NCBI GenBank assembly: GCA_008273105.1
Contig: GCA_008273105.1_4080.1
DNA length: 64,000 nucleotides
Direction: 5' to 3' (one strand)
Source: a phage
Shown: positions 7,570-48,783 of the stretch, in pieces
Numbering within the stretch: the stretch's first letter is position 1
Layout: every line of letters starts with the position of its first letter
Made by a program: the position numbers and the translations under genes
The notes under the pieces: model-generated
The model's input: only the letters and a program-made list of their open reading frames with translations
Told to the model about the DNA's origin: nothing
Database searches by the model: none

Positions 7570-7585
7570 CTTTATTTTCCTTAAT

Positions 7586-8173
7586 TTACCAACCAATTGT
7601 ACCAGTTTCTGATGGTTTTCCAGTACTGACTGGGAATGAAGAACCTTTTTGTGTAACACTAGGTCTATATGTACTAAATCTGGATACTTTATTAATGTTT
7701 ATATTTGTAATACCACTTGTACCAACGGTCAGTGTTCCAATAAACATTATAATTTCAGATTCTTGTATTTGTGTTGGTGATATTTTATAAATTGGTTCAC
7801 CGAGAACTAACGTTGCATATACGTATTGTGTTTGTGTTCCAGATGAAACAGTTGAAGCAAAAATAGAAACTGCTGGAAATTTATAAAGATAACCACCAAT
7901 AAATGATGGTATCTGTCTATTAAATGTAAGACTATAGCCTGATGAAGTAATATTTAGACTAGCGTCATCATACAATTCTCCGTATTGTGTAAGTGGTAAT
8001 CCATTGACAATAAAGTTAACTTCATCTTTGGTAATAGAGGGGAATGTACATTCCCCATTTGAATTTGTTGGGTAATAAGTCATATTATTACCTAATACAC
8101 CAAGACCAGTACTTTTACCCTGAACTGTAACTTGTTGCATTGCCTTAAGGTCTGCTCTTATTTTATATGCCAT
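7586..8173 (-). CDS. small tail-fibre-associated protein sharing the C-terminal module (195 aa)
   Basis: C-terminus SGITNININKVSRFSTYRPSVTQKGSSFPVSTGKPSETGTIGW parallels the C-termini of both flanking large proteins. Confidence 0.5.
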   Translation of the reverse strand: MAYKIRADLKAMQQVTVQGKSTGLGVLGNNMTYYPTNSNGECTFPSITKDEVNFIVNGLPLTQYGELYDDASLNITSSGYSLTFNRQIPSFIGGYLYKFPAVSIFASTVSSGTQTQYVYATLVLGEPIYKISPTQIQESEIIMFIGTLTVGTSGITNININKVSRFSTYRPSVTQKGSSFPVSTGKPSETGTIGW

Positions 8174-8184
8174 TATGTAATCCT

Positions 8185-10881
8185 TTACCAGTTTATGGTT
8201 CCTGTTTGTGATGGTAGACCGTAGCTAACTGGGAACGATGAACCTGCTGATTCAAGTGAAGCACCAAATATATCTAAACGGGAACGTTTTTGTATATTAA
8301 TTGTTTCGATTTGAATTGCATTAGTTTGAATTGTACCTATCCAAAAAATATTATATGCAGTTGTTCCTGTTTCAGAAATAACATCAGTAGTTATGTAATA
8401 GTTTGCCAATCCTTGTTCCAATTTAACATATACATAAAATGTTGTATTTGCTGGATTAGACTTAATAGTTCTCAAATCAATATTTGAAACTGGTAGTGAA
8501 AATGACTTACCTGAAAGAATAACTGGTGTTTCCTCTGTAAAATATACAATAAACCCTTGAGCAACGTCCTGGGATACTACGTTAATTGGGCTACCTTGTG
8601 CAGTCCAGTTATTATAGTCGGCAATCGTTGTTCCATATTTTTTGAATGTCATTTTATTTGAGTAATCCATTGGTTCAAAAATTCCAAAACCAATACCAGG
8701 TAATGCTGCTGGTTGACTTCCTTGTTCATAACTGGCATGAGATCCAGTAATTATAAAACTTGTAAATTGTGCAGTTGATTTAGTTACATATGCTCTAAAT
8801 TGATGAGTTGCAGTATTACCTATTGTTGGATGTGATAATGGGTCAGAACCACCAATGAAGTAGAATGAACCACCATCATATATTGTCAAACCAACAGAAG
8901 AAGATGCAATCGAACCATTCCCAGTTGGTGTAAAGTTATCACCATACGTATTCTCAAGTACTAAACGCTTAAATGTAATAGATGTAATATTACCAACTCT
9001 AGTATTGACATTAACTTCAGCAATTCTAATATAGTTTCTATAATCATTAGTAATTGTACTCAACATAACAAAAGCTGGAATGTCTGTTTGTTGTGGAACA
9101 AATAGTGTCATATCACGGTATGCTTGTGCTGATAAATTCCAATCACTTAGAACTTTGGCATATTCAGTATTTCTAAAATTGTCCAGTACTGATTGTGTAA
9201 CGCTTATAATTCCTGTGCCATTTAAGTTTTTATCATAGGATAATGATTGTGAATAACGTTGCCCAACCATAAAAATACCACCATTGGTTGTGACAGTTGA
9301 CCCAGAAATACTACTAATAAAAATTCTATTATTTGCATTATCATCAACATTAGCACGTTCAACTGTAGGTTCATAACCTTGTATTGTTCCTAAAGATAAT
9401 GATTTAAATGTAAAATTAGGAGTACTTTTATGAACTGCATATGATGGTCTAAATCCACCACTACCTGATGCACGTGAATATTGTTTAGTACTGTTATCTG
9501 GTAGTAATTCTACACCATTAATAAATGAACCAACCGCTGAACCAAAAGACGGGCGAACTATACCACCTTTGAAGTCAGTAGAAAGTACAGCACGGACATT
9601 CAGCATACTATAAACTATTTGAATAGGAAACTTAGCTTTTTGCATAAGTAATGGTTCTGCTAAGTTTGGACATGCAGTACAAAATGCTTCACCTGAATTT
9701 AAATAAAAATATGAACTATAAATGTTTCTTGCATTTGCATGGTTATACAATGGATCGTTATTTAAAACGTTACCAGTAGGAACTAATGCCGAACCAGTAT
9801 TAGTTATAACTAATGGTGCTTGATATGAACCAATATCGTTACCCGCATCTAATGTACATTGTTTAGTACTCATATTGAACACAAAACTGTAACTATGCTG
9901 TGGACGTGTATTATATGTTGCCATTGTAAACCAAGCATCCCCGTTCATTCTAAAGCGGAAATTCTGCGTTCCTGGCTGCTGTGCAACATATAAATCAATT
10001 GATGTCATGTAAATCCCAATACCACGTAGATTTTGTGGAACATACACATAAGGTTTATCAGCAATATTTGTTGATGTTACCTGATTAGTAATAACCATAT
10101 TATTTTGTGCAGAATATGTCGTGTTATAAAATGTTTTAGTAGTCCATCCAGTAATTCGAGTTGCAGTATAAGTACCATTGCTTATATTATAAACAACTTT
10201 AACAACAACTAATTGTAGTTGGTTATTTTCATTAAGTACGTTAAAAACATATATAGAACCATCTTCTGCCATCATAGCATATTCAATACCACCTTCAGGT
10301 GATATATCTGCTTGGTTAACGAAAAAACCAGTATGCAATTTATCATCTAATGTACCATTGGTAATTGATATGAACAAACCATTAGTACTGTTAGAAGTAT
10401 CAATATATCTACCGAGTAAAATATTTGGATCAGTATTATATAAACCAATCGCAACTCTATTTGAACCAAAAAACCCAGGCTTGTATTGACGACTAGTGTT
10501 AATTGTACGGCTCATGTCATCAACTGATAATGCGTTAGCCAAATATGAATAAAATAATCCCTCAACACTACCGTTTGTCCCACTACGTAAAAGTACTAGT
10601 GTACCATCGTTTTCTAATAAAATTTTATTTCTACGTTGTGACTGGTTTTCTGATGCACCATTGAAATCCCCAGAAACACCCGCAGGTAGATAGTTTTGTG
10701 AACCATAATGGGAGATTGGCATCATACTTACTATATCTAGTACTTCATCTCTGGAATAAGTATCTAATTCCAAGTTACCGTTGGAATCAAAAACTTGTTC
10801 ATTTATTCCTTGAATTGTTCTTTTACCATTAACTGTCACATTATGTGTGACATCTAAGCCACCATATATTTTCTTTGACAT
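8185..10881 (-). CDS. tail-fibre-like large structural protein (898 aa)
   Basis: N-terminal MPISHYGSQNYLPAGVSGDFNGAS and LLRSGTNGSVEGLFYSYL blocks; internal VSQDVAQGF...KSNPANTTFYVYV and C-terminal ...PSQTGTINW shared with the 4840..7569 protein; preceded by a TATAAATA motif. Confidence 0.6.
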   Translation of the reverse strand: MSKKIYGGLDVTHNVTVNGKRTIQGINEQVFDSNGNLELDTYSRDEVLDIVSMMPISHYGSQNYLPAGVSGDFNGASENQSQRRNKILLENDGTLVLLRSGTNGSVEGLFYSYLANALSVDDMSRTINTSRQYKPGFFGSNRVAIGLYNTDPNILLGRYIDTSNSTNGLFISITNGTLDDKLHTGFFVNQADISPEGGIEYAMMAEDGSIYVFNVLNENNQLQLVVVKVVYNISNGTYTATRITGWTTKTFYNTTYSAQNNMVITNQVTSTNIADKPYVYVPQNLRGIGIYMTSIDLYVAQQPGTQNFRFRMNGDAWFTMATYNTRPQHSYSFVFNMSTKQCTLDAGNDIGSYQAPLVITNTGSALVPTGNVLNNDPLYNHANARNIYSSYFYLNSGEAFCTACPNLAEPLLMQKAKFPIQIVYSMLNVRAVLSTDFKGGIVRPSFGSAVGSFINGVELLPDNSTKQYSRASGSGGFRPSYAVHKSTPNFTFKSLSLGTIQGYEPTVERANVDDNANNRIFISSISGSTVTTNGGIFMVGQRYSQSLSYDKNLNGTGIISVTQSVLDNFRNTEYAKVLSDWNLSAQAYRDMTLFVPQQTDIPAFVMLSTITNDYRNYIRIAEVNVNTRVGNITSITFKRLVLENTYGDNFTPTGNGSIASSSVGLTIYDGGSFYFIGGSDPLSHPTIGNTATHQFRAYVTKSTAQFTSFIITGSHASYEQGSQPAALPGIGFGIFEPMDYSNKMTFKKYGTTIADYNNWTAQGSPINVVSQDVAQGFIVYFTEETPVILSGKSFSLPVSNIDLRTIKSNPANTTFYVYVKLEQGLANYYITTDVISETGTTAYNIFWIGTIQTNAIQIETINIQKRSRLDIFGASLESAGSSFPVSYGLPSQTGTINW

Positions 10882-18839: not shown

Positions 18840-18866
18840 AAAAAATCCCTGCCAACAGACAGGGAC
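18840..18866 (-). terminator. rho-independent terminator
   Basis: Minus-strand hairpin ccctgtctgttggcaggg followed by ATTTTTT, downstream of the 62-aa basic protein gene. Confidence 0.5.
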
Positions 18867-18969
18867 GAAAAACTGAAATAACACATGGAGTTCTTTTTAA
18901 TTTAATAAAAAGTATTATTATTCTTATAAAAGTATTTATTAAGAACTCCACAATATGTCTTCAAATGAA

Positions 18970-19158
18970 TCAAAAACCTTTCTGAGCTACTAGTTCACGG
19001 TACTGTGCACGAGTTAGTACACCTTGTTTGCGTAGAGCTTGAAGACCGGATAGGGTTTCACTCTTACGTTGTTCGTACATACGTTGTTCTTTAGATTGAA
19101 TAACTTTCTCTTTCTTAACTTTTGCTACTGGTTCTTTTTTCTTAGGTTGTTTAGCCAT
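18970..19158 (-). CDS. small basic protein (62 aa), possibly nucleic-acid binding
   Basis: Lys-rich N-terminus MAKQPKKKEPVAKVKKEK; strong RBS AAGGAGAT upstream. Confidence 0.5.
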   Translation of the reverse strand: MAKQPKKKEPVAKVKKEKVIQSKEQRMYEQRKSETLSGLQALRKQGVLTRAQYRELVAQKGF

Positions 19159-19197
19159 TTTATATCTCCTTCTGTATTATGATAACAACATTATATC

Positions 19198-19220
19198 ATG
19201 TATGGGACATAATGTCCCAT
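19198..19220 (-). promoter_or_regulatory. perfect 11-bp inverted repeat overlapping a promoter-like -35/-10
   Basis: gtatgggacat-a-atgtcccatac palindrome; on the minus strand it is followed by TATAAT with about 17-nt spacing to GGGACA inside the palindrome. Confidence 0.4.
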
Positions 19221-19226
19221 ACAATA

Positions 19227-20666
19227 TTACATATTTTCTTCAGCAAATTCTGCAAGTGGTGAACGAACAACACCTTCTAGTTCGATGACACGACAACCTG
19301 CCCAATCTTTAAACTTCTCAGTTACATATGTCAAACCACTGTTAACAGGACTAATAAACTTACTGTCAATCTGACTCAAGTTACCCATAATTACTACTTT
19401 ACAGTTTAATCCTGCTCGTGTCAAGATTGTTTTAGCTTGTGCAGGTGTAATGTTTTGGAATTCATCAACTACTAGAATAGTGTTGGTGAATGAACGTCCA
19501 CGTACAAAGTTTAGTGCTTTAAATTGAATAACATTACGTTTCATAATCTCTTCAATACTACCTTGAGGGTTAGCATCATCTTTATGAAGAAACTCTAACG
19601 CGTCAATTGCGGCTCCACAGAATGGAATCACTTTTTCTGCTTCTGAACCTGGCAAGAAACCAATATCTTCAAACTGTGAGTCTTGAGTTTTAGAGAAGAT
19701 GATTCGGTCGTATTTACGTTTTTCCAGTACTAATTCTAATGCAGTAGCAATCGTAATTAGTGTTTTACCAGTACCAGCAGAACCTAGCAGTACTGTTAGA
19801 TGTACATCAGGATCGAGAATACTGTTGATGGCGAGTGCTTGTTGGATATTCTTTGCTTTAATATCCCATACTTTAGCACGTAAAGCTACTGATTGTCCAA
19901 TATCTTGGAATACCAAAATATCTTCTGGTGTTAGTGTTCCATCATCTTCCTCAATTGCTGATTGACCTTCGTACACAAATAATACGTCTGCATCATCATA
20001 TAGATAATCACCGATGCATAGATTTTGTGGAAGCAAATGTTCAATCAAGCTTTTAGAAATGTAATGATACAAACGACGACCAACTTGTTCGGATTGAATA
20101 TTAGTATTGGTTAAGTTGCTATATACTTCCCAAAAATTAATTTCCAAATGGTGTTGACCAATGTGAATCAAATCACTATCACCAATAACAATATCATGGC
20201 GATAATCTTGTACCTCGACACCATAACTTAGTGCTTTGATACGCATGTTGATATCACGAGTTACCAGTACTGATTCTGTTGCTAAAGCTACCAGAATGAT
20301 TTTATCATCAGGTACTGTGCTTTTGAGAAGGGTTTGAACTTTCTCTTCTGAACCTTTAGTACGAATTAGTGCTTCAGCTTCTTCGTTTGTAATAACAAAC
20401 AATTTGCTATCAGGATTCATATTGGTATGAACATCAGCAATATTAACACCAGTACTACTAATCTCATCATGTGATGCATCTGCAATAATTGCTTCAATGT
20501 TACGAATAGCAACACGAGCATCGCGTGAAACATCTACATTACGACTCTTAATTGAATCCAATTCTTCCAGTACTGTAAATGGTAGAATGATTGCAGCACC
20601 ATCAAAAGCAATAGATGCATTAGGGTCAGATAGTAGTACGTTTGTGTCAATTGTATATTTTTTCAT
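19227..20666 (-). CDS. phoH: PhoH-like ATPase with N-terminal PIN domain
   Basis: Walker A LLGSAGTGKTLITIA; PIN-like N-terminus (MKKYTIDTNVLLSDPNA...LEELD); 479 aa. Confidence 0.8.
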   Translation of the reverse strand: MKKYTIDTNVLLSDPNASIAFDGAAIILPFTVLEELDSIKSRNVDVSRDARVAIRNIEAIIADASHDEISSTGVNIADVHTNMNPDSKLFVITNEEAEALIRTKGSEEKVQTLLKSTVPDDKIILVALATESVLVTRDINMRIKALSYGVEVQDYRHDIVIGDSDLIHIGQHHLEINFWEVYSNLTNTNIQSEQVGRRLYHYISKSLIEHLLPQNLCIGDYLYDDADVLFVYEGQSAIEEDDGTLTPEDILVFQDIGQSVALRAKVWDIKAKNIQQALAINSILDPDVHLTVLLGSAGTGKTLITIATALELVLEKRKYDRIIFSKTQDSQFEDIGFLPGSEAEKVIPFCGAAIDALEFLHKDDANPQGSIEEIMKRNVIQFKALNFVRGRSFTNTILVVDEFQNITPAQAKTILTRAGLNCKVVIMGNLSQIDSKFISPVNSGLTYVTEKFKDWAGCRVIELEGVVRSPLAEFAEENM

Positions 20667-20726
20667 AAAACATCCTTGAGTTATGAGTACATCCTTGTAC
20701 TCGACTAATGTTATTGACTCGGATTA

Positions 20727-21029
20727 TTACATATTTGGTTCGTATTCAACATAGCAACGTGAACCTCGAACCTTTTCTTCCCAGCACTCCTGGTAAACAA
20801 GTTGACCAATTGAAACTGGTTCTCTTGATAGTCCATTACGTACTTCACCACTTTGGGTTTTATACATAAATGAACATTTGGACTCGCTACATTGTCCTAA
20901 ACTAACAACTTCTGCGGTATTGTAGTGAATGTTGGTACGCTTAGTGTTCTCGTGATACTGTCCGAACCAAAGAACTCCTGCACCTAACAGAACAGTACAA
21001 ATAAGACTTTTGATGTGTGTTTGAATCAT
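20727..21029 (-). CDS. small membrane-anchored Cys-containing protein (100 aa)
   Basis: N-terminal hydrophobic segment LICTVLLGAGVLWF. Confidence 0.45.
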   Translation of the reverse strand: MIQTHIKSLICTVLLGAGVLWFGQYHENTKRTNIHYNTAEVVSLGQCSESKCSFMYKTQSGEVRNGLSREPVSIGQLVYQECWEEKVRGSRCYVEYEPNM

Positions 21030-21346
21030 AATGAGTTAAATCCATTGTTTAAGTATGTTTCAATATTAATTTTACCAACAGGATTACTACTGTGAACAAA
21101 GTACTCAAACGGTTCTTTAATATTATTATCAAACATATAATCAATAAGAAACTTAGCAAAAGAATATCCAGTCTTTTCGTCTTCGCTCACATCACCCAAG
21201 TCATGGTCGAATGATACAAATGCTGGAATTCCATTTTCAATAACATATTCACATGCACTTTTAAAGTCACGACATACCACCATATCTTGGTTTGGATAAT
21301 ATAGATTTGCATCACGAATATCATCCAAAAACATTGAGTAAGACAT
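21026..21346 (-). CDS. hypothetical protein, possibly receiver-fold-like (106 aa)
   Basis: Track ORF co-located with the Sir2-like and Nudix-like genes; contains FDHDLGD and HSSNPVGK; fold assignment speculative. Confidence 0.4.
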   Translation of the reverse strand: MSYSMFLDDIRDANLYYPNQDMVVCRDFKSACEYVIENGIPAFVSFDHDLGDVSEDEKTGYSFAKFLIDYMFDNNIKEPFEYFVHSSNPVGKINIETYLNNGFNSL

Positions 21347-21355
21347 GTTAAACTC

Positions 21356-21907
21356 CTATAGATAACTAATTAGTAAGTTTTCTTTTTGAACCAGATACTC
21401 CAATTCTTGTTTTGCTGTACCGATGAAGTTCTGTGTCATAAGATTATTATATCCCGCTTCTCGATTTTGTCCCTTAGAATAACGCGAAATATGACATAAA
21501 TTTACACCAGCAACTTCTGCACTTGCATGTTTAGCATTAGTGTATCCATCTCTAATGTGTTTCAACTCGTCATAGGTTACTTCATAGCTAAAACTGTGAC
21601 TGTTTGCACCTGGGTAAATTTCAAAAGTTTTGAGTGGTCGAAGATGGGAAACAAAAATATTGTAATCCATTTCTTCTTGAACTTCACGACGCAACGCATC
21701 TTCTAGTGAGATATCAGTACTTTCTACGGTTCCACCACATCCACCAAGAAGACCATCCCATCGTAATTGCAGTAATACTAAATTTACTTCTGGTATATCA
21801 TTCAACTCATAGTTTTTGTAAGGGTTGCATTTTCTTGCAAAGAAATAACAAAATACAAAATTTGCACGTGTGCCATATTCACCAAAGGGAACTTCTTTAA
21901 CACTCAT
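21356..21907 (-). CDS. putative Nudix-family hydrolase (degenerate Nudix box)
   Basis: GGCGGTVE...RREVQEEMDY approximates the G-x5-E-x7-R-E-U-x-E-E-x-G-U box but with a longer spacer and D in place of G. Confidence 0.4.
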   Translation of the reverse strand: MSVKEVPFGEYGTRANFVFCYFFARKCNPYKNYELNDIPEVNLVLLQLRWDGLLGGCGGTVESTDISLEDALRREVQEEMDYNIFVSHLRPLKTFEIYPGANSHSFSYEVTYDELKHIRDGYTNAKHASAEVAGVNLCHISRYSKGQNREAGYNNLMTQNFIGTAKQELEYLVQKENLLISYL

Positions 21908-22662
21908 TTCATACGTTCCTTAATTATAGTCTCTAGATGCGGTATTGCTTTGGTTGCTGGCTTGATAACTTTTTCATTAAACAAAAAATCATTATCATTT
22001 TTACGAATGTTAACATTAACACTATAACATGGTAATGCTGCTGCTAATCTCGACCATACCAGTACTGTATCGCTACTACCAATTACAATAACTGTATCAT
22101 TTTCATTAAGAGATTTCAACACATTATTTCGTTCTTCGTAAATTGGTAAGCGAATACCATCAACATAACGATGATATTCTCCAATCATTACTACATTTGG
22201 TTTGGCAAAAACATCATGTTTTGGTATGTATGGTTCGTATCCGCAGTTAATAACATTATAATCATCAGAATTGATACTATAATTTTCAATAACTTCACAC
22301 AAGTTTCCATGAAGTTTAAGCTCATGACCACCAATACGAGTATAAAGATCGTCCATGTTAGAAGTCATATGAAGGAAGCAATCACCATATTGATCTTCTA
22401 ACGATTTTATAAAATAATGCATTGCATTTGGTTCGCATTGTCCCAATTTTACACGTAATGTATTATAGAAAGAATGAACAACATGATATTTTGTAGTTAA
22501 ACTAGCAATGTTACATACATCATTAATTTTAAATGTATCCCACAAACCATCATCAAATCGAAAAGGTTCCATACCACTTTCAACAGAAAGTCCTGCACCT
22601 GATATAATCAGTAATCGCTTTTTACCTTCATTGCTTATAAATTTTTCTGATATCATATTCAA
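21904..22662 (-). CDS. Sir2-family (sirtuin-like) NAD-dependent protein
   Basis: ISGAGLSVESGMEPFRFDDGLWD matches the GAGIS-x-x-SGIP-x-FR signature; TSNMDDLYTRIGG and LKLHG (candidate catalytic His) in expected order; VVMIGE and IVIGSS blocks. Confidence 0.6.
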   Translation of the reverse strand: MNMISEKFISNEGKKRLLIISGAGLSVESGMEPFRFDDGLWDTFKINDVCNIASLTTKYHVVHSFYNTLRVKLGQCEPNAMHYFIKSLEDQYGDCFLHMTSNMDDLYTRIGGHELKLHGNLCEVIENYSINSDDYNVINCGYEPYIPKHDVFAKPNVVMIGEYHRYVDGIRLPIYEERNNVLKSLNENDTVIVIGSSDTVLVWSRLAAALPCYSVNVNIRKNDNDFLFNEKVIKPATKAIPHLETIIKERMK

Positions 22663-22665
22663 TCC

Positions 22666-22860
22666 TTATAAAAAAACAATTAAATATATTGATAATAACA
22701 GAATGATTCCAATATGATAGGCATACATAAAATTATTATCTTTGTGATAACCATTGGATTTCAAGTCCCTATATAAGCATTTAGCATTGTTATAAATTAC
22801 AACAATAGAAAAAACTATAAAAAAACTCAAAACCCATTCATAAATTGTGTATGCCATCAT
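22666..22860 (-). CDS. small membrane protein (64 aa)
   Basis: Two hydrophobic helices. Confidence 0.4.
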   Translation of the reverse strand: MMAYTIYEWVLSFFIVFSIVVIYNNAKCLYRDLKSNGYHKDNNFMYAYHIGIILLLSIYLIVFL

Positions 22861-22887
22861 CTATTCTCTCTTATAATATTAGTACTT

Positions 22888-23481
22888 TTAATATTTTAAA
22901 ACATCAAACTCTTCGCTTACGCTTGTTACATTATCACTAACAATTTTAAAAATTGATTTGATACGTTCGTGTAGTGGTTTTTTAGATTCGTTCTCAACTT
23001 CAATATATGCTTGCATTGCTGCAATTGCATGATATGTCCCACTACCTACTGCGGTAATTCTTGTTTTAGGTTGTAGTACTGAAAAGTCTTCTTGAACTTC
23101 ATAGATTGTATGATTGTGGAGAATGATAAATTGTCCACCACCTACATCTTGTGATGCATCTCGTGCACCCCATTCTTCTTTAAACATTTGACGAATGATT
23201 GGAATAACTTTAAGAACCAAATATTGTGAAAATGTTTGACTAGCATCTTGTTCAGGTAAATTAAGGTTATAATTTAACAACTGACCCATACGAAATGATG
23301 TAGTATAACCCAATGCCATTACTTCTTTAGTTCTAGTTAGTCCATCATCATGTAACTTGATAAATTCTTTCTCGAATACCTTTGGCTCAGTTTGAACAGT
23401 TTTTGTAAATCCATTGCTTCCTAACTTATCCCCAGCAATAAAAGAACTTACTCCGTCAGTGTGTGCAATAATACAGGTCAT
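22888..23481 (-). CDS. HslV/proteasome-like N-terminal-Thr peptidase (about 197 aa)
   Basis: From internal ATG at 23481 the product begins MTCIIAHTDGVSSFIAGDKLGS (compare HslV TTIVSVRRNGHVVIAGDGQ); C-terminal AVGSGTYHAIAAMQA resembles HslV AIGSGGPYAQAAA; track ORF extends to 23550. Confidence 0.5.
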   Translation of the reverse strand: MTCIIAHTDGVSSFIAGDKLGSNGFTKTVQTEPKVFEKEFIKLHDDGLTRTKEVMALGYTTSFRMGQLLNYNLNLPEQDASQTFSQYLVLKVIPIIRQMFKEEWGARDASQDVGGGQFIILHNHTIYEVQEDFSVLQPKTRITAVGSGTYHAIAAMQAYIEVENESKKPLHERIKSIFKIVSDNVTSVSEEFDVLKY

Positions 23482-23738
23482 AAAATAGCTCCAATTGCAA
23501 ATAATGTTGTGTATAAGATATAAATTAGTGCTCCTAACAACATTAGGCACACCAAGTATGAAGTTGATAGTACATAATAAATTATTGCTTCGAATTTTGA
23601 ATTGAACTTCATTGTAGTTGGATCAATAAAGCCATTACGATAATCTTTGTAAATGAAAACTGTTAGAAAAATAACTGTAGCATACATTACTACAGTAGCA
23701 TAAAAAATAATAGATGTCAAGTTTTGGATGTTTGTCAT
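23478..23738 (-). CDS. small membrane protein (86 aa)
   Basis: Three hydrophobic segments; stop overlaps the HslV-like start (ATGA). Confidence 0.45.
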   Translation of the reverse strand: MTNIQNLTSIIFYATVVMYATVIFLTVFIYKDYRNGFIDPTTMKFNSKFEAIIYYVLSTSYLVCLMLLGALIYILYTTLFAIGAIL

Positions 23739-23808: not shown

Positions 23809-24432
23809 TTATTGTTTGACTGAACCGTAAAAAACCAGTTCTGGTTTTGTTAATATTACAACATCTTCACCACGAGAACGACTAACTCTAAATAGAACTT
23901 CTGGTGGGATTCCATTTGCTGCATATAGTGAAAAAAGGAAACCTACCTTTGTTGCCATTTCTTCGGTAAAAGTTGATAGCTGTCTTACAGACACAAATGA
24001 ATTATCACCATCAGTAACATTACTTTTAATCGAAATGTTATGAAGACCCAGTACTGAGCGATTTGTCATATATCGCTTTTCGGGAGATACACTAAAGAAT
24101 ACCACAGTACATGCTGAATTGCAATACCTAGAAACAATTAAATTTATCCCATTGTCTCTAACAAAGTTTGCCATTCGAATACCTGCATCAAAATCACCAC
24201 CAGGAGATGTAATTGTGATGGTATCATAGTGTTCTTTATCATACAACTCTATCATTCTCTTGAGTGACCCATCTGTAATATCTGATATGAAATATACATT
24301 TCGGGTTTCAGGATTATACTTTATCACATTTTTACTTTCAATACCAGCACTGGCTGGAAAATTTATTAACAATAGAAACATCGCTGCTTGTATCACTTCA
24401 AGCCATAGTCTTTTCATATAACAAGTCCTCAA
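23809..24432 (-). CDS. signal-peptide-bearing ClpP/SppA-fold protein
   Basis: N-terminal hydrophobic signal (AAMFLLLINFPASAG); ITSPGGDFDAGIRMANF resembles the ClpP/S49 SPGG block; catalytic triad not clearly identifiable. Confidence 0.4.
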   Translation of the reverse strand: MRTCYMKRLWLEVIQAAMFLLLINFPASAGIESKNVIKYNPETRNVYFISDITDGSLKRMIELYDKEHYDTITITSPGGDFDAGIRMANFVRDNGINLIVSRYCNSACTVVFFSVSPEKRYMTNRSVLGLHNISIKSNVTDGDNSFVSVRQLSTFTEEMATKVGFLFSLYAANGIPPEVLFRVSRSRGEDVVILTKPELVFYGSVKQ

Positions 24433-29258: not shown

Positions 29259-30050
29259 TTAAATTTCAAATACAAATTTAGGATTGTAATCAAAATTCTC
29301 ACAAGCTCCACTGTATGATTCATAGCCTCGTGGATTACAAATGATACGTGTCTTACCAATGTGGTAGTCAAAACTACTATGAACATGACCATGAATCCAA
29401 ACATCAGCACCCAAATCTTCAATGTACTGATCCATATCGGAACAGTAACAACCATTCAGTGAATCATTTTTATATTTTGGTGAAACACTTTGATAACTTG
29501 GTGCGTGATGGGTAACCACGATTACCTTGAAATCATTATCATGCATAAAGCGAACTGTGTCAATAGAATTTTTGATAAATTGTTTATCTTTGTGATGCAT
29601 AAACTCAGTATCATCTGGTGTCAGTTTCTTACGCCAAGGCTCTGATGTTGTTCCATGACGGATATGTTTGTAATCGTTCATCTTCAGACGAGCATCAAAC
29701 TTCGTCAAAGAATTACCTTTATCGAAGTCTGTCCACAGAGTACTACCAACAAGCAGTACTCCATCCAGCCATACAAATTTGTTTTGCAAAAAGATGAAAT
29801 TAGGAATCTCATCTTGCATATCGGACAGTACTTTATGCGTTTTGTGGATATTGGAACCATAATATTCATGATTGCCAGGAACCAGTACTACATTCTTAAA
29901 CTGCTTACATAGTGATTCTATACCAGTACGGTAACGACTGCGTTTAACTTCATCGAAGTCCCCAGCAATAATCAGTACTGTATCACTGTAATCACCACTA
30001 TGGAGGTAATCAGTACCACCGTGTACGTCAGACGTTACAACAAATTTCAT
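29259..30050 (-). CDS. calcineurin-like metallophosphoesterase
   Basis: DVHGG, IIAGDFDE, VPGNHEY, VVTHHAP, WIHGHVH metal-binding motifs in canonical order. Confidence 0.7.
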   Translation of the reverse strand: MKFVVTSDVHGGTDYLHSGDYSDTVLIIAGDFDEVKRSRYRTGIESLCKQFKNVVLVPGNHEYYGSNIHKTHKVLSDMQDEIPNFIFLQNKFVWLDGVLLVGSTLWTDFDKGNSLTKFDARLKMNDYKHIRHGTTSEPWRKKLTPDDTEFMHHKDKQFIKNSIDTVRFMHDNDFKVIVVTHHAPSYQSVSPKYKNDSLNGCYCSDMDQYIEDLGADVWIHGHVHSSFDYHIGKTRIICNPRGYESYSGACENFDYNPKFVFEI

Positions 30051-30069: not shown

Positions 30070-31488
30070 TTAGCCAAGTGATTCAATGATACTGTTTGAG
30101 AACACCTCAACAGCACTATCACGAATTTCTAAAATACGAGTATAGTCGTCACAAGTGTTTTTGTCAAATCTAAATTCAATAAACACTGGTAAGAACAGTG
30201 ATGGCTCACCAGTACGCTTGTCGAATACAATGTCATTACACTCAACTGTAACCACTTTACCAATAAGTTCTTGCATTCTTTCCCAAATGGTTTTAAATGT
30301 CCATTCAGCATCTTTCTCTTTGATACCAGTACCCACATTAACTTTCAATGAACCACAAGCACTTTCCAGTTGTAAAGAACCTAGGCTTCCTTTACGTTTA
30401 CCTTCACCTTCATTGAAACCAACAATACGCAAGTCTAGTTGCATTTTCAATTTCATTTTCAACTGCTTCGGAGAAGTGTGAGATTTCCAGATACCATCTT
30501 CACATTTCAGTACTGAACCCTCTTCACCTTCGTTCATTAGTTCACTATTGTACTCAAATGCTTCTTTGATGTTTAGAACTTTACGGAATCCAACCATACG
30601 AACAAAATCACTATTGAGTTCGTTAATTGCATCTACTAAGATCTCGCGACGTTCTTTACGTTTTACATCCCATACACCTTCACAAAATGCATCATATGGA
30701 ACAACATCCCATAGAACGAATACAGTACGCATTGCTTCATTCTGACTGATGCTATCTTTACCAGCTTTCTGAATTATACCGTTGCCAGTAGTGCGTGGGA
30801 GAATGGTTTCCCCATCATTGTCCAGTACTACACCTTCCCCCATAAAGACCACACCACTACTAAAACGTTCATCTTTACTTTGGATGATGTGAGCAAGACC
30901 TGCCATCTCACCATCACGACAACCCAGGAAGTCGTATAGTTTACCATTACGGGATGTAGAAGTTAATGAACCATTAATAACAACGTGGTTCAAGTACTGA
31001 CCATCCATTTTCACTTCTGATATAGCGTAACCATAATCTTTGAAGTTGATGTTCTTTGCAGTCTTTTTGTCAATCAAAGAACAACGCATATATGGTTCGT
31101 CTTTAATAAAGCCTTTACCAAATACATCATTGCAGTTCTTTTCTTGAATACCACAATCAAGGTTTTTAGTAAGCATTTTACGGAGAACTTCCTGATCATC
31201 TTCAGATACAGAACCCAGTACTGAAGCAATGAAATCACGCCCCGCATTTCCTGTCACATCACGCTTGTAAATGCATTCTAGCTTATCAATTGCTTCATCT
31301 AACGTCATATGTTGATATACGTCATCAGCGGCAGGGAGCTTCTTATAGCCACTAACGATAGAAGGGTCTAGAGTATATTTCAGTACTTTTTGTAAAGTTA
31401 CATTATCTTTATTTTGTTCAAGAATAGCTTTTTTGCCTAGTGTACTGCTAGTATTTTTAATGCTTTCAAGAATTGCTAAAATGCTCAT
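30070..31488 (-). CDS. ATP-dependent DNA ligase (T4 gp30-like)
   Basis: 472 aa; N-terminus MSILAILESIKNTSSTLGKKAILEQNKDN closely parallels T4 DNA ligase; adenylation motif I EVKMDGQ (KxDG). Confidence 0.85.
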   Translation of the reverse strand: MSILAILESIKNTSSTLGKKAILEQNKDNVTLQKVLKYTLDPSIVSGYKKLPAADDVYQHMTLDEAIDKLECIYKRDVTGNAGRDFIASVLGSVSEDDQEVLRKMLTKNLDCGIQEKNCNDVFGKGFIKDEPYMRCSLIDKKTAKNINFKDYGYAISEVKMDGQYLNHVVINGSLTSTSRNGKLYDFLGCRDGEMAGLAHIIQSKDERFSSGVVFMGEGVVLDNDGETILPRTTGNGIIQKAGKDSISQNEAMRTVFVLWDVVPYDAFCEGVWDVKRKERREILVDAINELNSDFVRMVGFRKVLNIKEAFEYNSELMNEGEEGSVLKCEDGIWKSHTSPKQLKMKLKMQLDLRIVGFNEGEGKRKGSLGSLQLESACGSLKVNVGTGIKEKDAEWTFKTIWERMQELIGKVVTVECNDIVFDKRTGEPSLFLPVFIEFRFDKNTCDDYTRILEIRDSAVEVFSNSIIESLG

Positions 31489-31499
31489 TGTATATTCCT

Positions 31500-32702
31500 T
31501 TATAGATAATACTTTCCAATATAAAGTGGATTACTAATTGATAGTTGAACGTGACACGGCTTATCTTGGTAGTAACGAGAACTTGATGTTTTGCGTTCAT
31601 TTGGTGGGAAGAATGGGGAACGATAGCCATTCCATGTACTAAATGATGAGTGTTCATTAATATCAACATCCATTACCATAATCCCATTATCATCAATTTG
31701 AACTGGATATGCACTAAAGCGTTCAAATTTATCATTATAATGGATATTATAATCTCCACTACGCCCATAATAACTACGCGTTGTATTATTACTTACACCA
31801 AAAAATACGCGATATGTTTGTTCATTATCTTTAGTCATAAATGGTACGTTCTCGTTGAAACGTCCATTATTCATAAGATCATCAACATTTATTTCTTCAT
31901 ATTTAATTTTTAGGTCTTTTGCTTTAAATGATTTATTGTGTACCAGTACTGGAATGTTAGATTCACCTAATGGGTTATGTCTGTTTGTTCTATAGCTTTG
32001 CCAAAATTCATTAGCAAGTTTAATTTCTTCATCTGCCGTAGTCTTCTTATTCAAGAGTGCACGAGGTTCAAGATTGTAATTATCCAAACGTTGATTCAAT
32101 GCATAAGTTCCACGAGTACTGTTAAAAAGTAAATGATAAACTGAACTTTTGTCGGGATATGCAAATTCTTTAGTTTTCTTTATACAAATTGCATGTACTT
32201 TACCGCAGTAATAGTAATCTTCTTTAAGATAAGTGAAACCATCACCAACTTTAAGACCTGCTACAGTTTCTTTTTGTTGTTCTTTTTTATTTTCTTTTTC
32301 AACTAACTTAGCAAACGTTTTTGTTTTACCATTAATTAATTCTAAGTTATTGTTGAAAAACATTGGGTCTACAAAAACACCTTTGATTATATCGTTATTG
32401 ATAATTAAATCATTCATGTTTTTTGCACTAATCATAAATTCAAATCCTTCTGGGTGACGGATCGTGAAATATGTTTCTCGTGCATGAGTTGTTAATTTAT
32501 CAACTACACAAAATCCCGTAGTTGGAACGTTGTCAATATATAACGATGGAAGATTGTTCTTCTTTGCCCAGTACTCTGCTCTCTCTTTCTTTGTTTCAAA
32601 CGCTTTTGTATGTGATTTTGTTGCATCGATAATAAAACCATCAACTTGGTTGTGGTTTACATAGGAACGTGCAACAAATAACTTCTCTGGAAAATCCATC
32701 AA
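31500..32702 (-). CDS. hypothetical protein (400 aa)
   Basis: Track ORF immediately upstream of the ligase; no motif recognised. Confidence 0.5.
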   Translation of the reverse strand: MMDFPEKLFVARSYVNHNQVDGFIIDATKSHTKAFETKKERAEYWAKKNNLPSLYIDNVPTTGFCVVDKLTTHARETYFTIRHPEGFEFMISAKNMNDLIINNDIIKGVFVDPMFFNNNLELINGKTKTFAKLVEKENKKEQQKETVAGLKVGDGFTYLKEDYYYCGKVHAICIKKTKEFAYPDKSSVYHLLFNSTRGTYALNQRLDNYNLEPRALLNKKTTADEEIKLANEFWQSYRTNRHNPLGESNIPVLVHNKSFKAKDLKIKYEEINVDDLMNNGRFNENVPFMTKDNEQTYRVFFGVSNNTTRSYYGRSGDYNIHYNDKFERFSAYPVQIDDNGIMVMDVDINEHSSFSTWNGYRSPFFPPNERKTSSSRYYQDKPCHVQLSISNPLYIGKYYL

Positions 32703-33118
32703 ATTGTCCTCATTGTGCTGATTGCTTTTAATGTGTCAAACAATGCACCATATTTTACTTGCATTAGTTGATCACCAGCAGGAAGATTCATACGCATAAC
32801 AGCCATGTCTTCAATCATTTCAGACGTACACAGTACTGCTACACAGGTAATAGCATCATTCAATCCAGCTTCATTGAATTTGGCAAACGGAACTTTTCCC
32901 TGTTTGCTAAGGTTGTTATAATAAGAATTTAACTTATCATGTCCACCAGCATTTAGTACTACAATAGTTTCGTGTTCATAGTACCATTCATCAATAATAG
33001 TACTGAAAGCAGTACCTTCATATTCTTTAATTAGTTTAACACCAGCATGGAATGCTTGAATACCAGCTTGGACACCTTGGCAGTACATATTAGTTAAACA
33101 ATACAATTTCATTTCCAT
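32699..33118 (-). CDS. hypothetical protein (139 aa)
   Basis: Track ORF. Confidence 0.5.
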   Translation of the reverse strand: MEMKLYCLTNMYCQGVQAGIQAFHAGVKLIKEYEGTAFSTIIDEWYYEHETIVVLNAGGHDKLNSYYNNLSKQGKVPFAKFNEAGLNDAITCVAVLCTSEMIEDMAVMRMNLPAGDQLMQVKYGALFDTLKAISTMRTI

Positions 33119-33621: not shown

Positions 33622-34380
33622 TTACCTTTTGAAACGATTGAATGAGTACTCATCTTTTTCTTTACGTAAGTATCTCATTCCACCACTTTGTGGAGTAGCG
33701 AGAGTTAAGTCACCCGTCAAGAACTGACTATCAATCCAAATGCGATTACCGTAAATTAGTGGATCTGTAACTGCTGTATGTCCACTAAAGACACAATGCA
33801 CTCCATCTAACTTAGGTGCATAATATGTATTATTAGTTCTACAATAATCGAATGTTTTTCTATCCCACAAGCACTTATCAATTATATCAGCACTAAGTGA
33901 TTTTGTCCCATTAACAAATCGTTCCCATGTTGTATATTCCAACGGAACTCCAGCATGAACTAACCCAATCTTCAATCCTCGGTGATTGATTTGGATAATC
34001 ATAGGGAGATCCTTTAAGTACTGACGAAAGAATTGAATGCCTGTTCCTCCAACTTCATCAAGGAATTTATCACCACCATTACTTATCCAACAATGATACC
34101 AATCTCGAAGTGTTTCCGAATCAACGCACATCATCTCATGATTACCCGCAATCATGTAACGATTTTCTCCGAACAAAAATTCAAAAAGGAGCTTTGAATT
34201 TTGTTCTCCACGGTCGATAATATCACCTACACTGAAAACATAATCATTGTGTGTAATACCAAATTCTTTCACTGTAGCATCCCATAGTTTACCATTACCA
34301 TGCAAATCACCTACAATGTATAAATCTTTATCATCAGGTACGGTTACTTCTAAGAAGTGTTTCATTATTACTCCAACCAT
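33622..34380 (-). CDS. PPP-family Ser/Thr protein phosphatase-like metallophosphatase
   Basis: GDLHGN, GDIIDRG, AGNHE motifs in order (lambda phosphatase / ApaH-like). Confidence 0.7.
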   Translation of the reverse strand: MVGVIMKHFLEVTVPDDKDLYIVGDLHGNGKLWDATVKEFGITHNDYVFSVGDIIDRGEQNSKLLFEFLFGENRYMIAGNHEMMCVDSETLRDWYHCWISNGGDKFLDEVGGTGIQFFRQYLKDLPMIIQINHRGLKIGLVHAGVPLEYTTWERFVNGTKSLSADIIDKCLWDRKTFDYCRTNNTYYAPKLDGVHCVFSGHTAVTDPLIYGNRIWIDSQFLTGDLTLATPQSGGMRYLRKEKDEYSFNRFKR

Positions 34381-37799: not shown

Positions 37800-38732
37800 T
37801 TAGAAATTTCCTTCTGCAACTTGAAAAACTTTCAAGCCAAGTAGCTTACGCCACATGAATACGACTTGTGTTCGGTCATCATATACCTTTTTAACATCGT
37901 AATGATCAACCACATTTTTCATGTACAGGTCGAATTTTACAACATCATCAGGACGTTTATCATCGATATCTCGCATAAACAATGCATCGTAAGGAACACC
38001 CCAATTCTTAAGCCACTGTTCGGTATCCGCACGACACCCTTCAGTACGCCCACTCATGACGATAATCTTGCGTTTATGAAAAACTGCTTCAGCGATAATA
38101 GACAAAATAACTTCTTCATCAGGTGTATCCTGAAGAACAGTACTTTCATCGTAAGGATTACGACCCCATTTATGAGCAAGAGTTCCATCGATATCAACGA
38201 TGATAGCAGCTTCGCGTGAATTACCATAGTAACCAATGTGCATGGCCTTACTATAATAGTACGTATCTGCCATAGTGTCAATGATATTATCTTGTACTGA
38301 ACGCTCACGCATGAGGTTACGTTTCTTACAAAGTTTTACGAACTCTTTAATCTTAAAGAAAACATGAACATCTGCACCACGATCTTCATTCGGTACAAAA
38401 TCTTCGTAGAAGTTCTTTTCTTTGTAGTCGTATTCATTATCTTTAGCCCAACGTTTCCATTCATCACGGAAATGTTGTTTAAGGTTCGTATCGGACACAA
38501 TGATGTTCCAACCATTCTCTGCTGCTGAATTTGCTGCACTGAACTGCATTTTAGTTACGTACTGCTCATTAGCGTCGTTGAATTTGTATGCATCATGTGA
38601 CCCTGCCATTGATTCTCGAATGTCATCACGGTTAATGTTGATAGTCTTCGATTTGGCATTTTTAATTTCTTGAACTGCCCATGTGGTTTTACCACAACCA
38701 GGCAACCCAACTGTTAGTGTAATAGTTGGCAT
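37800..38732 (-). CDS. pseT: polynucleotide 5'-kinase/3'-phosphatase (T4 PseT-like)
   Basis: Walker A LTVGLPGCGKTTWA, NINRDD block and HAD-type phosphatase motif IVDIDGTLA, matching T4 Pnk organisation; 310 aa. Confidence 0.85.
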   Translation of the reverse strand: MPTITLTVGLPGCGKTTWAVQEIKNAKSKTININRDDIRESMAGSHDAYKFNDANEQYVTKMQFSAANSAAENGWNIIVSDTNLKQHFRDEWKRWAKDNEYDYKEKNFYEDFVPNEDRGADVHVFFKIKEFVKLCKKRNLMRERSVQDNIIDTMADTYYYSKAMHIGYYGNSREAAIIVDIDGTLAHKWGRNPYDESTVLQDTPDEEVILSIIAEAVFHKRKIIVMSGRTEGCRADTEQWLKNWGVPYDALFMRDIDDKRPDDVVKFDLYMKNVVDHYDVKKVYDDRTQVVFMWRKLLGLKVFQVAEGNF

Positions 38733-39828: not shown

Positions 39829-40971
39829 CTAAAAATCCTTTAGTACAATTTTCATGTATTTTATAAGAGTCTCTTTGTAATCAACTTTCTTATTGTTATA
39901 CATTGCAAAGGCCAAGCCCTGACGATTCAGTTCATTAGTTAAACACTCCTGAACCTTCATTGCGAATTCCTTTCGCTCCAAGTGCTTGTGTTCCTTGACG
40001 AAGCTTTCTACTTCATCTTGTAATGCATTATAGCACGAAAATACCAATTGTTCCATTCTTAATATCTTTTGCATAGCATATTCATCAGTACTGAACAATT
40101 GTTTTAAATCATCACTTGAACCATTTAATACGGCTTCATATAAATGAGAATCAATAATAATACTATCTTTTGTAAGATGTAATGAACTGTACCAGTCAGT
40201 CTTTATTTTACACATTGTCCCATTATTTAGGATGCACACAAAACCCTCAATATCAAGCATTTTATGAACTTCCTCCACGCTTTCACGGAAGGTATTTCGT
40301 ACCGGAAAAGTGTGATGAATATCTTTTCCGGTCATATTAGTACTGTACTGTGCAAGACATGGAAACTTATCACGTAGTGCTTTACCACATAGCAACTCAC
40401 CACTCACACGATGTCGAACGTTCAGTACAAACAGTTGTTCTACCTGATATGGTAATACAATTCGGTACTCTGGGCTTGTATACTCCATATTAACTGTGTA
40501 ACCTAAACGTTCCGCTTCGTCGATGTACTGATACAAATTCTGGTTCTCGTTAATAAGTCGAGTACTGTTAATCGCATGGTCAGAATACAATGCAGTATGT
40601 GATTTACAACGAATCTCACCATCATTATCACGATAAGTACTGATAATCGAACCATCCAACTTAGGCATCACGACCGCAATGTCATCGCATGTGGTGTTAG
40701 CAGGGAACATTGTAGCAGGATTCTCGTAAGCATTGAAGAACTTTTTCATTGTACGTGCTGCACAACGTATCATGTCACCTTCTTCATCAATTTCCCACAT
40801 AGAGCCACGGGTTTCCAACGCATTTGGTTGCATGAAATCAGTGTATGATGCTAGGCGATAACTGAATACACGATACGTGCCACCAGCAGGACTTTTATGA
40901 TCCACATAAAAGAATGCATCGTTTGTATTACATAAGTGCATTAAATCTTCATATATTTGTAAAAGGGTCAT
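39829..40971 (-). CDS. rnlA: RNA ligase 1 (T4 gp63/Rnl1-like)
   Basis: GGTYRVFSYRLASYTDFMQPNALETRG and MPKLDGSIISTY (KxDG motif I) closely parallel T4 Rnl1; 380 aa. Confidence 0.85.
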   Translation of the reverse strand: MTLLQIYEDLMHLCNTNDAFFYVDHKSPAGGTYRVFSYRLASYTDFMQPNALETRGSMWEIDEEGDMIRCAARTMKKFFNAYENPATMFPANTTCDDIAVVMPKLDGSIISTYRDNDGEIRCKSHTALYSDHAINSTRLINENQNLYQYIDEAERLGYTVNMEYTSPEYRIVLPYQVEQLFVLNVRHRVSGELLCGKALRDKFPCLAQYSTNMTGKDIHHTFPVRNTFRESVEEVHKMLDIEGFVCILNNGTMCKIKTDWYSSLHLTKDSIIIDSHLYEAVLNGSSDDLKQLFSTDEYAMQKILRMEQLVFSCYNALQDEVESFVKEHKHLERKEFAMKVQECLTNELNRQGLAFAMYNNKKVDYKETLIKYMKIVLKDF

Positions 40972-47731: not shown

Positions 47732-48265
47732 TTATTTCCTCATGTATTTTATAACGTCTTCAAATAATTGTATTTTTAAGTCCTCGTCATTTCCAGGTAA
47801 AAACTCACGAAAACTATCAAAATCTTCATTTTTTGCGAAGTTACGCATTTGTGTTGAGCTATATTGACTTACATTACGGTCAATACCTGCCTGAATTGCT
47901 TTTATACTACAAAAATTATACAACTTACCATTGTACATGTCAAGAGTTTTTTGAAAAGAATCAATACGGTCAGAACCACAAATGAAAAGAACATCTAAGT
48001 ACTTTCCATCCAGTTCTCTCATTATATCAAATAGATTGTCTTCTGTGTAGATGTTCTCTTGCACTGAAGGATAGAATCCCTCTGTATAATACATTTTTAG
48101 TTCAGGTGGGAGTGGGTTTTTTATATTGTCAGTACTGGTGCTTAGATATATTTTTAAATCAGCATTGTACTGTTCTTGTAATGTTTTGGCCTTTTCAAAA
48201 ACTAAACCATGTCCACGATGTACAGGATTAATACGACCAAACGTTAATACACATGTTTCTTTCAT
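47732..48265 (-). CDS. NMN-adenylyltransferase-like nucleotidyltransferase (HxGH family)
   Basis: TFGRINPVHRGH resembles the GRFQPFHKGH active-site motif of NadM-type NMN adenylyltransferases; 177 aa. Confidence 0.55.
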   Translation of the reverse strand: MKETCVLTFGRINPVHRGHGLVFEKAKTLQEQYNADLKIYLSTSTDNIKNPLPPELKMYYTEGFYPSVQENIYTEDNLFDIMRELDGKYLDVLFICGSDRIDSFQKTLDMYNGKLYNFCSIKAIQAGIDRNVSQYSSTQMRNFAKNEDFDSFREFLPGNDEDLKIQLFEDVIKYMRK

Positions 48266-48783
48266 AGATTCTTCATCACCAATCCGAGAGATTTAAGATA
48301 ATTAATTTTAGCAGTAGTGAGGTACTTATCAAGGACTATAAGACACGAAGGAAATGGTGCTGAATCTGTTTTCTTATCAGGTTCTTCTGGAATACCAAAA
48401 CGTAATCTACCTTTGATAAAACAAATACAATCACATATTTTGGCTGCATATTCCTGAAATGCTATTGTATCAGTCCTGGATGGTACTAGAATCAGTACTG
48501 TAGCACCTTTATTATACGCATCTACTGCCTTGGCTAACCAAGTTTTTAAATCACTATATGGGGGATTTAACCAAACAATATTTTTTCCCCAGTCTTGTTC
48601 AAGAGAATTATCATCAGGTGTAAAATAGTTATCACACAATGCAGTCTCATCAACACAAGCAGCATCAAGTGTAAATCCCCATAACTCATCCAAATCTTCA
48701 AAGAAATCTTTGGGAGTTGTCCAGTTGTCCTTTCCAGTACTGAAATGTACTGAATGTTTTTTCGAAGCATCCTTCTTCGACAT
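48262..48783 (-). CDS. phage Dam-type DNA N6-adenine methyltransferase
   Basis: FSTGKDNWTTPKDFFEDL, FTLDAAC and VWLNPPYS (NPPY catalytic motif); about 173 aa. Confidence 0.75.
   Translation of the reverse strand: MSKKDASKKHSVHFSTGKDNWTTPKDFFEDLDELWGFTLDAACVDETALCDNYFTPDDNSLEQDWGKNIVWLNPPYSDLKTWLAKAVDAYNKGATVLILVPSRTDTIAFQEYAAKICDCICFIKGRLRFGIPEEPDKKTDSAPFPSCLIVLDKYLTTAKINYLKSLGLVMKNL

Follow-up and report, generated by a model that had tools for sequence, protein, structure and literature searches.

A sirtuin-Nudix-cREC gene cassette in an Asteriusvirus-type jumbo phage and its possible role in NAD-dependent processing of RNA ends

Organization of the cassette

We analyzed a stretch of 64,000 nucleotides of phage DNA (GenBank assembly GCA_008273105.1, contig GCA_008273105.1_4080.1; hereafter the window) and therein a run of genes encoding a sirtuin of the Sir2 family, a Nudix hydrolase, a receiver-fold protein of the cREC family, a small membrane protein and a PIN-PhoH protein. 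The region is 99.7% identical to that of Escherichia phage vB_EcoM_G17, an Asteriusvirus jumbo phage of the 121Q/PBECO4 group, and 121Q, PBECO4 and about 20 further records match it at about 98-99.7% identity. These relatives are jumbo phages with genomes of about 350 kb; phage TH47, used below for comparison, is likewise classified as Asteriusvirus. The GC content of the region is about 33%, and the minus strand carries essentially all genes. In the GenBank records, the first two genes of the cassette are already named 'Sir2-like / NAD-dependent deacylase' and 'nudix hydrolase'.

An initial annotation, which was made from the sequence without database searches, had pointed to three consecutive open reading frames at 21026-22662. 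All three are present on the minus strand together with the motifs quoted for them. The first (21904..22656) encodes a zinc-less, CobB-like sirtuin of 250 amino acids (aa; PF02146, phrog_2162). For this gene, the ATG at 22656 is a more likely start than the TTG at 22662, which adds two residues, because an AAGGA ribosome-binding site lies upstream of the ATG and the resulting 250 aa agree with the database entries. An ATGA overlap joins the stop codon of the sirtuin gene to the start of the gene for a NUDT16/X29-like Nudix hydrolase of 183 aa (21356..21907, minus strand; PF22327, PF00293, phrog_9999). The cREC gene, encoding a receiver-fold protein of 106 aa that is a predicted phosphoesterase (21026..21346, minus strand; PF20274, cREC_REC), follows after a gap of 9 nucleotides, and its ribosome-binding site spans the Nudix stop codon. 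A further ATGA overlap couples cREC to the gene for a Cys-containing membrane protein of 100 aa (20727..21029, minus strand; phrog_14661). The next gene begins 60 nucleotides past the latter and encodes a putative PhoH2-like RNA helicase/RNase of 479 aa with PIN and PhoH domains (19227..20666, minus strand; PF13638 PIN_4, PF02562 PhoH); its match to the NCBIfam model 'RNA 5'-3' helicase PhoH2' is partial and, at 152 bits, below the cut-off. No terminator-like sites were found on the cassette strand within 18866-23674, and a terminator-like hairpin is located upstream of the cassette at 23696-23674. Promoter-like sites numbered 38 compared to 31.9 ± 6.6 expected, which is not above chance, and no promoter is claimed.

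All five genes are under purifying selection when the cassette is compared to that of TH47 (79% nucleotide identity). The ratios of nonsynonymous to synonymous substitution rates (dN/dS) were lowest for the sirtuin (0.035) and the PhoH2-like protein (0.067), followed by cREC (0.10) and by the Nudix hydrolase and the 100-aa protein (0.13 each), values that are only qualitative because dS is near saturation in this comparison. The 100-aa protein contains four cysteines and a hydrophobic segment at its N-terminus. It is encoded directly after cREC in 15 of 15 Rak2-like jumbo phage loci and is a possible fourth member of the cassette. The PIN-PhoH gene stays beside the Sir2-Nudix-cREC trio at 45% sirtuin identity.

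Protein families of the cassette

The placement of the first protein in the Sir2 family, which the initial annotation had based on signature motifs, was borne out by its match to PF02146 (E=3.7e-20, 73.1 bits against a curated cut-off of 24) and to phrog_2162 (E=2e-77). As the sirtuin, Nudix and cREC matches all surpass the curated Pfam cut-offs, they are far beyond chance, and the PHROGs assignments of the three proteins are in agreement. The motifs GAGLSVESG and LKLHG hold the family-invariant residues G22/G24/S26 and H118/G119, and across 27 aligned sequences G22, G24, S26, N102, D104, H118 and G119 are invariant. An AlphaFold2 model of the protein reached a predicted local distance difference test (pLDDT) score of 91.7. 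Its best Foldseek match is Escherichia coli CobB (TM scores 0.77/0.85, 28% identity), and all 50 PDB matches listed by Foldseek are class I/III sirtuins. Scores against the NCBIfam CobB equivalogs were 85-93 bits, and thus below the cut-offs of 243-320. The zinc-ribbon segment contains zero to two cysteines in the phage sirtuins, compared to four or five in CobB-like outgroups.

The closest relatives form a clade of about 42 clusters with 43-100% identity on contigs of jumbo phage size, followed by a gap to CobB-like proteins. Scanning of viral contigs yielded 199 sirtuin relatives, including two further lineages, T5-like and rV5-like. The cysteine tetrad is gone in all three lineages, which in turn share residues not found in the CobB-like outgroup (C50, N51, I52, Y59, H63, N67, R70, D105, R109, E123, G141, Y142, K154, N156, Y175 and N218). 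In the jumbo lineage, a beta-hairpin is additionally inserted behind the FGE loop. The zinc ribbon helps to form the peptide cleft of deacylase sirtuins, and this cleft may be altered by the loss of the zinc cysteines and the hairpin insert. A sirtuin of a defense system (ThsA, DSR or SIR2-HerA type) was also considered and rejected, as no PADLOC family matched the protein at E<=0.01.

The second protein matched the Nudt16-like family PF22327 (E=8e-19, 68.6 bits; cut-off 27), the general NUDIX family PF00293 (E=4.9e-7) and phrog_9999 (E=1e-90), and the Nudix fold proposed for it is therefore confirmed. Its sequence matches in the PDB are human NUDT16 and Xenopus X29, both with E values of about 3e-12. 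The Nudix box had been read as degenerate and oddly spaced, and a diverged substrate had been deduced from this. Both ideas have to be abandoned, as the box aligns residue for residue with those of NUDT16 and X29 (GG.V[ED]..D.SLE[DE].L.RE..EE) and represents the standard extended box of the NUDT16 family. The RExxEE motif is kept in all phage Nudix homologs; the Gly that follows it in NUDT16 and X29 is missing from the aligned phage proteins. Nudt16-like proteins are rare, with 237 cluster representatives among 1.84 billion. In sister genera of this phage, the Nudt16-like and cREC domains are fused in a single polypeptide of about 301 aa. Outside this setting, Nudt16-like domains occur in fusion with Ham1/ITPase or HD_4 domains, and part of the family may accordingly act on free nucleotides. 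NUDT16 itself has been shown to remove the ADP-ribose that TRPT1/KptA attaches to RNA ends (PMC6582358).

The receiver fold that had been guessed for the third protein was supported by its match to PF20274, cREC_REC, the 'cyclic-phosphate processing receiver domain' (E=1.5e-22, 80.5 bits; cut-off 27). The cREC family is broad, with at least 169 clusters, and was found at more than 515 viral loci. Three motifs, LDDxR, FDHDL and HSxNPxG, are invariant and are placed by the structural model after strands 1, 3 and 4, the positions of the acidic pair, the phospho-acceptor Asp and the Thr/Ser of receiver domains. The protein combines a receiver fold with conserved aspartates at the sites that make up the active center of receivers. 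The DxD after strand 3 consists of D47, at the phospho-acceptor site, and D49, and an H-S pair follows strand 4. Compared to the receiver (REC) domains of response regulators, cREC has only four strands, lacks strand 5 and its conserved Lys, and carries the extra Asp at +2 as well as conserved His residues. By analogy, D47-x-D49 may be likened to the DxD nucleophile/acid pair of HAD phosphatases. A profile comparison of the cREC alignment to CheY detected no similarity in sequence (hhalign probability 0.12), and the relationship to receivers is visible at the level of the fold only. A sequence search of the PDB returned chance matches only, and none of the PADLOC models matched. Iyer et al. 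(2021, PMC7824862) defined the domain and report that it is never associated with histidine kinases; it has been described as experimentally uncharacterized (Iyer et al. 2022, PMC9503650). Histidine kinases were not found among the recurrent neighbor clusters scanned with Pfam, although no search was aimed at them.

Gene neighborhoods in phages and bacteria

To place the cassette in its genomic context, neighboring genes were clustered for 80 viral and 75 bacterial cREC loci (155 in all) and for 80 Sir2 loci. Recurrent partners within the 155 cREC loci include RNA ligases, calcineurin-like phosphoesterases (Metallophos), Sir2, Nudix and NAMPT. Among the 80 viral loci, Metallophos genes occurred in 15, mostly adjacent to cREC, T4 Rnl1-type RNA ligases (RNA_lig_T4_1) in 10, and Rnl2-like RNA ligases with an OB domain, NAMPT and PIN-PhoH in nine each; Sir2 was present in seven. 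On bacterial contigs, Sir2 directly followed by cREC was found twice (L180 and L193), and on another contig (L169) Sir2 lies near a cREC fusion.

The three phage lineages that share the zinc-less sirtuin display distinct layouts. Rak2-like jumbo phages encode, in most genera, NMNAT-Nudix, NAMPT and an Acb1-like 2H protein, followed in all by Sir2, Nudt16-like, cREC, the 100-aa protein and PIN-PhoH; in many of these phages, Nudix and cREC form the fused polypeptide mentioned above. In rV5-like phages, the order is Metallophos, Rnl1-type RNA ligase, cREC, P-loop kinase, Sir2, DNA ligase and MazG-like, and the run from the Rnl1-type ligase to Sir2 is co-directional. The T5-like layout consists of NrdD, Sir2 and HAD_SAK_2, a 'Swiss Army Knife RNA repair' phosphatase. 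In phage T5 itself (6998-9478), the sirtuin is located just downstream of NrdD and is followed by two small open reading frames, the HAD_SAK_2 phosphatase and two DUF7415 genes. The common denominator is this sirtuin clade together with an aspartate-type phosphoesterase, either cREC or HAD, often in the company of an RNA ligase and a kinase.

In sister genera (BF, GAP32, CBB, fHe-Yen9-04 and others), the genes for NMNAT-Nudix, NAMPT and the Acb1-like 2H phosphodiesterase immediately precede that of the sirtuin. Among L085-L099, 13 sister loci contain the 2H gene, which does not occur in the 121Q-type or RaK2 loci. Neither 2H nor NAMPT nor NMNAT-Nudix was found at the 121Q-type locus analyzed here or elsewhere in the window, and the 121Q-type locus is a reduced form of the cassette neighborhood. 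A search for NAMPT gave no 121Q-type record among the best 60 matches, although the full phage genome was not scanned.

Further genes of the window also relate to RNA or nucleotides. A T4-type polynucleotide kinase-phosphatase (Pnkp; 37800..38732, minus strand; PF13671 AAA_33, PF25109 HAD_PNKP, E=1.8e-43) and a T4 Rnl1-type RNA ligase (39829..40971, minus strand; PF09511 RNA_lig_T4_1, PF20819 T4_Rnl1_C) are located 16-19 kb upstream of the cassette and are possible cooperating RNA-repair genes. Together with a weak match to a PTH2 peptidyl-tRNA hydrolase (32699-33118, minus strand), they lie 10-19 kb upstream of the cassette, and their presence within 20 kb gives the region a tRNA/RNA repair theme; no tRNA genes were detected within the window. 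In between, two calcineurin-like phosphoesterases are encoded at 29259-30050 and 33622-34380 and an ATP-dependent DNA ligase at 30070-31488; genes for NrdD and dCMP deaminases are likewise located in the region. Just upstream of the cassette and on the same strand are an HslV-like peptidase (phrog_1040; 22888-23550, minus strand) and a Clp/NfeD-like protease (phrog_26024; 23809-24432, minus strand).

The initial annotation had added to the set a gene resembling nicotinamide mononucleotide adenylyltransferases (NMNAT) at 47732..48265 on the minus strand, 26 kb from the cassette. The HxGH motif is present in its product of 177 aa, but no NMNAT threshold was reached (TIGR00482, 19.8 bits, cut-off 112; CTP_transf_like PF01467, 17.3 bits, cut-off 21), and the NMNAT identity was rejected. 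PHROGs lists the protein as 'cytidyltransferase', with an alignment that covers part of a 678-position profile, and no sequence relative was found in the PDB. By sequence, it is best classified as a generic HxGH nucleotidyltransferase. The gene adjoins one for a Dam-type methylase (48262-48783). Nearby, a 228-aa protein without a family match (46561-47247, minus strand) has the repeat TNTNTNT close to its N-terminus and eight acidic residues, DDDDDDDE, at its C-terminal end.

Interpretation and comparison with known systems

The sirtuin clade stands beside a different RNA end-healing set in each of the three phage lineages. This linkage is consistent with an NAD-consuming function of the cassette in the processing of RNA ends or of RNA-linked ADP-ribose, by which RNA cut by host nucleases would be repaired or cleaned, a reading to which we assign a probability of roughly 40%. 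The zinc-less sirtuin would bind NAD+, expel nicotinamide and move the ADP-ribose to an RNA phosphate, either the 2'-phosphate left by an opened 2',3'-cyclic end or a terminal phosphate. The NUDT16-like Nudix hydrolase would then split the pyrophosphate bond of the ADP-ribose with release of adenosine monophosphate (AMP), and cREC would resolve the leftover cyclic or monophosphate. The PIN-PhoH2 helicase/RNase may deliver or clear the RNA substrates, and Pnkp and Rnl1 of the phage, despite their distance, could carry out the kinase and sealing reactions. We infer that RNA is the substrate and that the sirtuin works as a transferase instead of a deacylase, and likewise the sequence of these reactions.

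A two-step chemistry is established for Tpt1 (PMC11417386). In our own reading, it mirrors that of sirtuins, with an oxygen nucleophile attacking C1'' and the ribose 2''-OH acting thereafter. More tentatively still, the zinc-less clade of T5-, rV5- and Rak2-like phages might have evolved the chemistry of Tpt1 on its own and act as an RNA-directed ADP-ribosyl/2'-phosphotransferase and not as a protein deacylase, and cREC might be a stand-alone DxD aspartyl-phosphate phosphoesterase and not a signaling switch, both forming an NAD-dependent RNA repair route with the NUDT16-type Nudix hydrolase; we regard this extended proposal as doubtful.

Several observations weigh against such a function in RNA processing. 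The closest structure, CobB, is a true protein deacylase, and the catalytic His for deacylation is retained. RNA ligase and kinase are not adjacent to the cassette in this phage, and as it already encodes a complete T4-type Pnkp, there is no obvious need for a second route of healing. The fusions of Nudt16-like domains to Ham1/ITPase and HD_4 fit free nucleotides such as inosine di- and triphosphates (IDP, ITP), not RNA. PIN nucleases are metal-dependent and are not known to leave cyclic phosphate ends. The linkages might also reflect a shared early-gene or nucleotide-metabolism region, with NrdD and dCMP deaminase nearby. Our literature search on phage sirtuins and cREC returned two computational papers only and no experimental work. 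Finally, as no KptA/Tpt1 gene adjoins cREC in any of the 155 loci, a direct swap of KptA for Sir2 was not observed; the bacterial cREC contexts are too varied to inform on such a replacement.

Instead of acting on RNA, the sirtuin could, like CobB, deacylate lysines in proteins of either the host or the phage, with the Nudix enzyme hydrolyzing the resulting O-acyl-ADP-ribose or ADP-ribose and cREC dephosphorylating the sugar phosphate. In sequence and fold, the sirtuin best matches CobB and Sirt5, both class III deacylases, and its clade shows no variation in GAGxS, N102/D104 and the catalytic H118; the GenBank annotation reads 'NAD-dependent protein deacylase', and some Nudix enzymes hydrolyze O-acetyl-ADP-ribose. 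We nevertheless consider deacylation unlikely, given that the zinc-site cysteines are lost in three lineages and the peptide cleft may be further altered by the hairpin insert of the jumbo lineage, that the score remains far under the CobB equivalog cut-offs, and that the Nudix protein is of the RNA-directed NUDT16 type and not of the ADP-ribose pyrophosphatase type. Deacylation would also leave unexplained why RNA ligase, polynucleotide-type kinase, HAD_SAK_2 and cREC are recurrently linked to the sirtuin. The links to RNA ligase, kinase and HAD_SAK_2 are not explained either by a role in nucleotide housekeeping, which we judge to be very improbable. Here, the Nudix hydrolase would clear IDP/dIDP-type nucleotides, or the set would degrade NAD to AMP and ribose phosphates for nucleotide synthesis of the phage, with cREC as a nucleotidase. 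The Ham1/ITPase and HD_4 fusions, the region rich in nucleotide metabolism (NrdD, dCMP deaminases) and the NrdD gene that directly precedes Sir2 in T5-like phages agree with this, but it offers no coherent role for a conserved and catalytically intact sirtuin, nor does it account for the specific fusion of Nudix and cREC.

The gene set could also serve to counter host defense. The initial annotation had suggested a measure against NAD-depleting abortive infection or an ADP-ribose signaling module, and was right about the NAD/ADP-ribose theme. The tie to NAD depletion is unsupported because the trio makes no NAD, the sirtuin consumes it, and the NAMPT/NMNAT-Nudix pair is absent from the locus. 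The general direction survives, as RNA repair is itself a form of counter-defense against RNA-cleaving host toxins, one that Iyer et al. (2022, PMC9503650) had put forward before. The ADP-ribose module came closer; the gene context in three lineages points to processing and repair of RNA ends. A more specific version, in which Nudix and cREC destroy ADP-ribose messengers (cyclic ADP-ribose isomers of the Thoeris type and related molecules) or ADP-ribose adducts set by defense transferases of the host, and the sirtuin makes or edits molecules of this kind, also appears unlikely to us, even though degradation of cyclic ADP-ribose has been raised as a possible role of cREC and Nudix (Iyer et al. 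2021, PMC7824862) and the cassette of the sister genera is situated directly downstream of NMNAT-Nudix, NAMPT and the Acb1-like 2H gene, in anti-defense-like surroundings. As summarized in PMC13464706, NMNAT-Nudix and NAMPT form the pair of enzymes by which the NARP2 pathway reconstitutes NAD. However, the trio persists here without NAMPT, NMNAT-Nudix and Acb1 at the locus or in the window, the neighbors in rV5-like and T5-like phages form sets for RNA repair and not for signal degradation, an NAD-consuming sirtuin would be harmful to the phage under NAD-depleting immunity, and the papers found on phage counter-defense, which treat the NARP pathways (NARP1-3), concern other genes.

If processing of RNA ends is indeed the function of the cassette, two well-studied folds would gain new activities, the sirtuin on RNA phosphates and the receiver domain as a catalytic phosphoesterase, and phage RNA repair would possess an NAD-dependent branch that counters RNA-cleaving defenses of the host. 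As the same sirtuin clade occurs in T5 and rV5-type coliphages, whose host is E. coli, the question is directly accessible at the bench, and T5, which itself carries the sirtuin, is a convenient model for the clade.

The cassette is real and coherent but already annotated and computationally described, and cREC is an established Pfam family. NAD-dependent RNA repair with a sirtuin acting like Tpt1/KptA has been predicted before (Iyer et al. 2021, 2022; PMC7824862 section 3.4.8, PMC9503650), and Iyer, Burroughs, Anantharaman and Aravind (2022; PMC9503650, section 3.7.3) described the same three configurations as predicted sirtuin-centered phage RNA-repair systems. Our analysis independently reproduces these gene contexts and brings out the NUDT16 family membership of the Nudix hydrolase (the term 'Nudt16' does not appear in the main text of PMC9503650), the clade-wide loss of the zinc site, the DxD of cREC, the translational coupling and the purifying selection. 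The locus resembles their configuration 1 (Serratia phage BF type) in its Rak2-like jumbo phage setting, in the Nudix-cREC fusion of its relatives and in the presence of sirtuin, Nudix, cREC and PIN as consecutive co-directional genes (19227-22656). It differs in that the Asteriusvirus locus lacks the Acb1-like 2H gene and the adjacent NAMPT/NMNAT-Nudix pair.

With CobB and Sirt5, the phage sirtuin has the fold (TM 0.77-0.85), the NAD-binding motifs and the catalytic His in common; it is set apart by 28% identity, the missing zinc cysteines, the beta-hairpin insert, the clade-specific residues and equivalog scores below the cut-offs. The Nudix protein shares the extended box and the full-length domain with the U8 small nucleolar RNA-decapping family of NUDT16 and X29, but is phage-encoded and fused or coupled to cREC. 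A parallel to the pathway of Tpt1/KptA, cyclic phosphodiesterase and Macro in fungal and plant tRNA splicing is given by the action of NUDT16 on RNA adducts made by TRPT1; in the cassette, whose activities are predicted, unrelated folds would take over, with a sirtuin Rossmann fold standing in for the Tpt1/ADP-ribosyltransferase fold, a receiver for 2H and Nudix for Macro. The Pnkp-Rnl1 pair of T4 tRNA repair is encoded in this phage as well, although T4 repair, unlike the cassette, uses no NAD and involves neither a sirtuin nor a Nudix hydrolase. In rV5-like phages, cREC occupies the place that corresponds to the HAD phosphatase domain of T4 Pnkp, with the Rnl1-type ligase on one side and a stand-alone kinase on the other.

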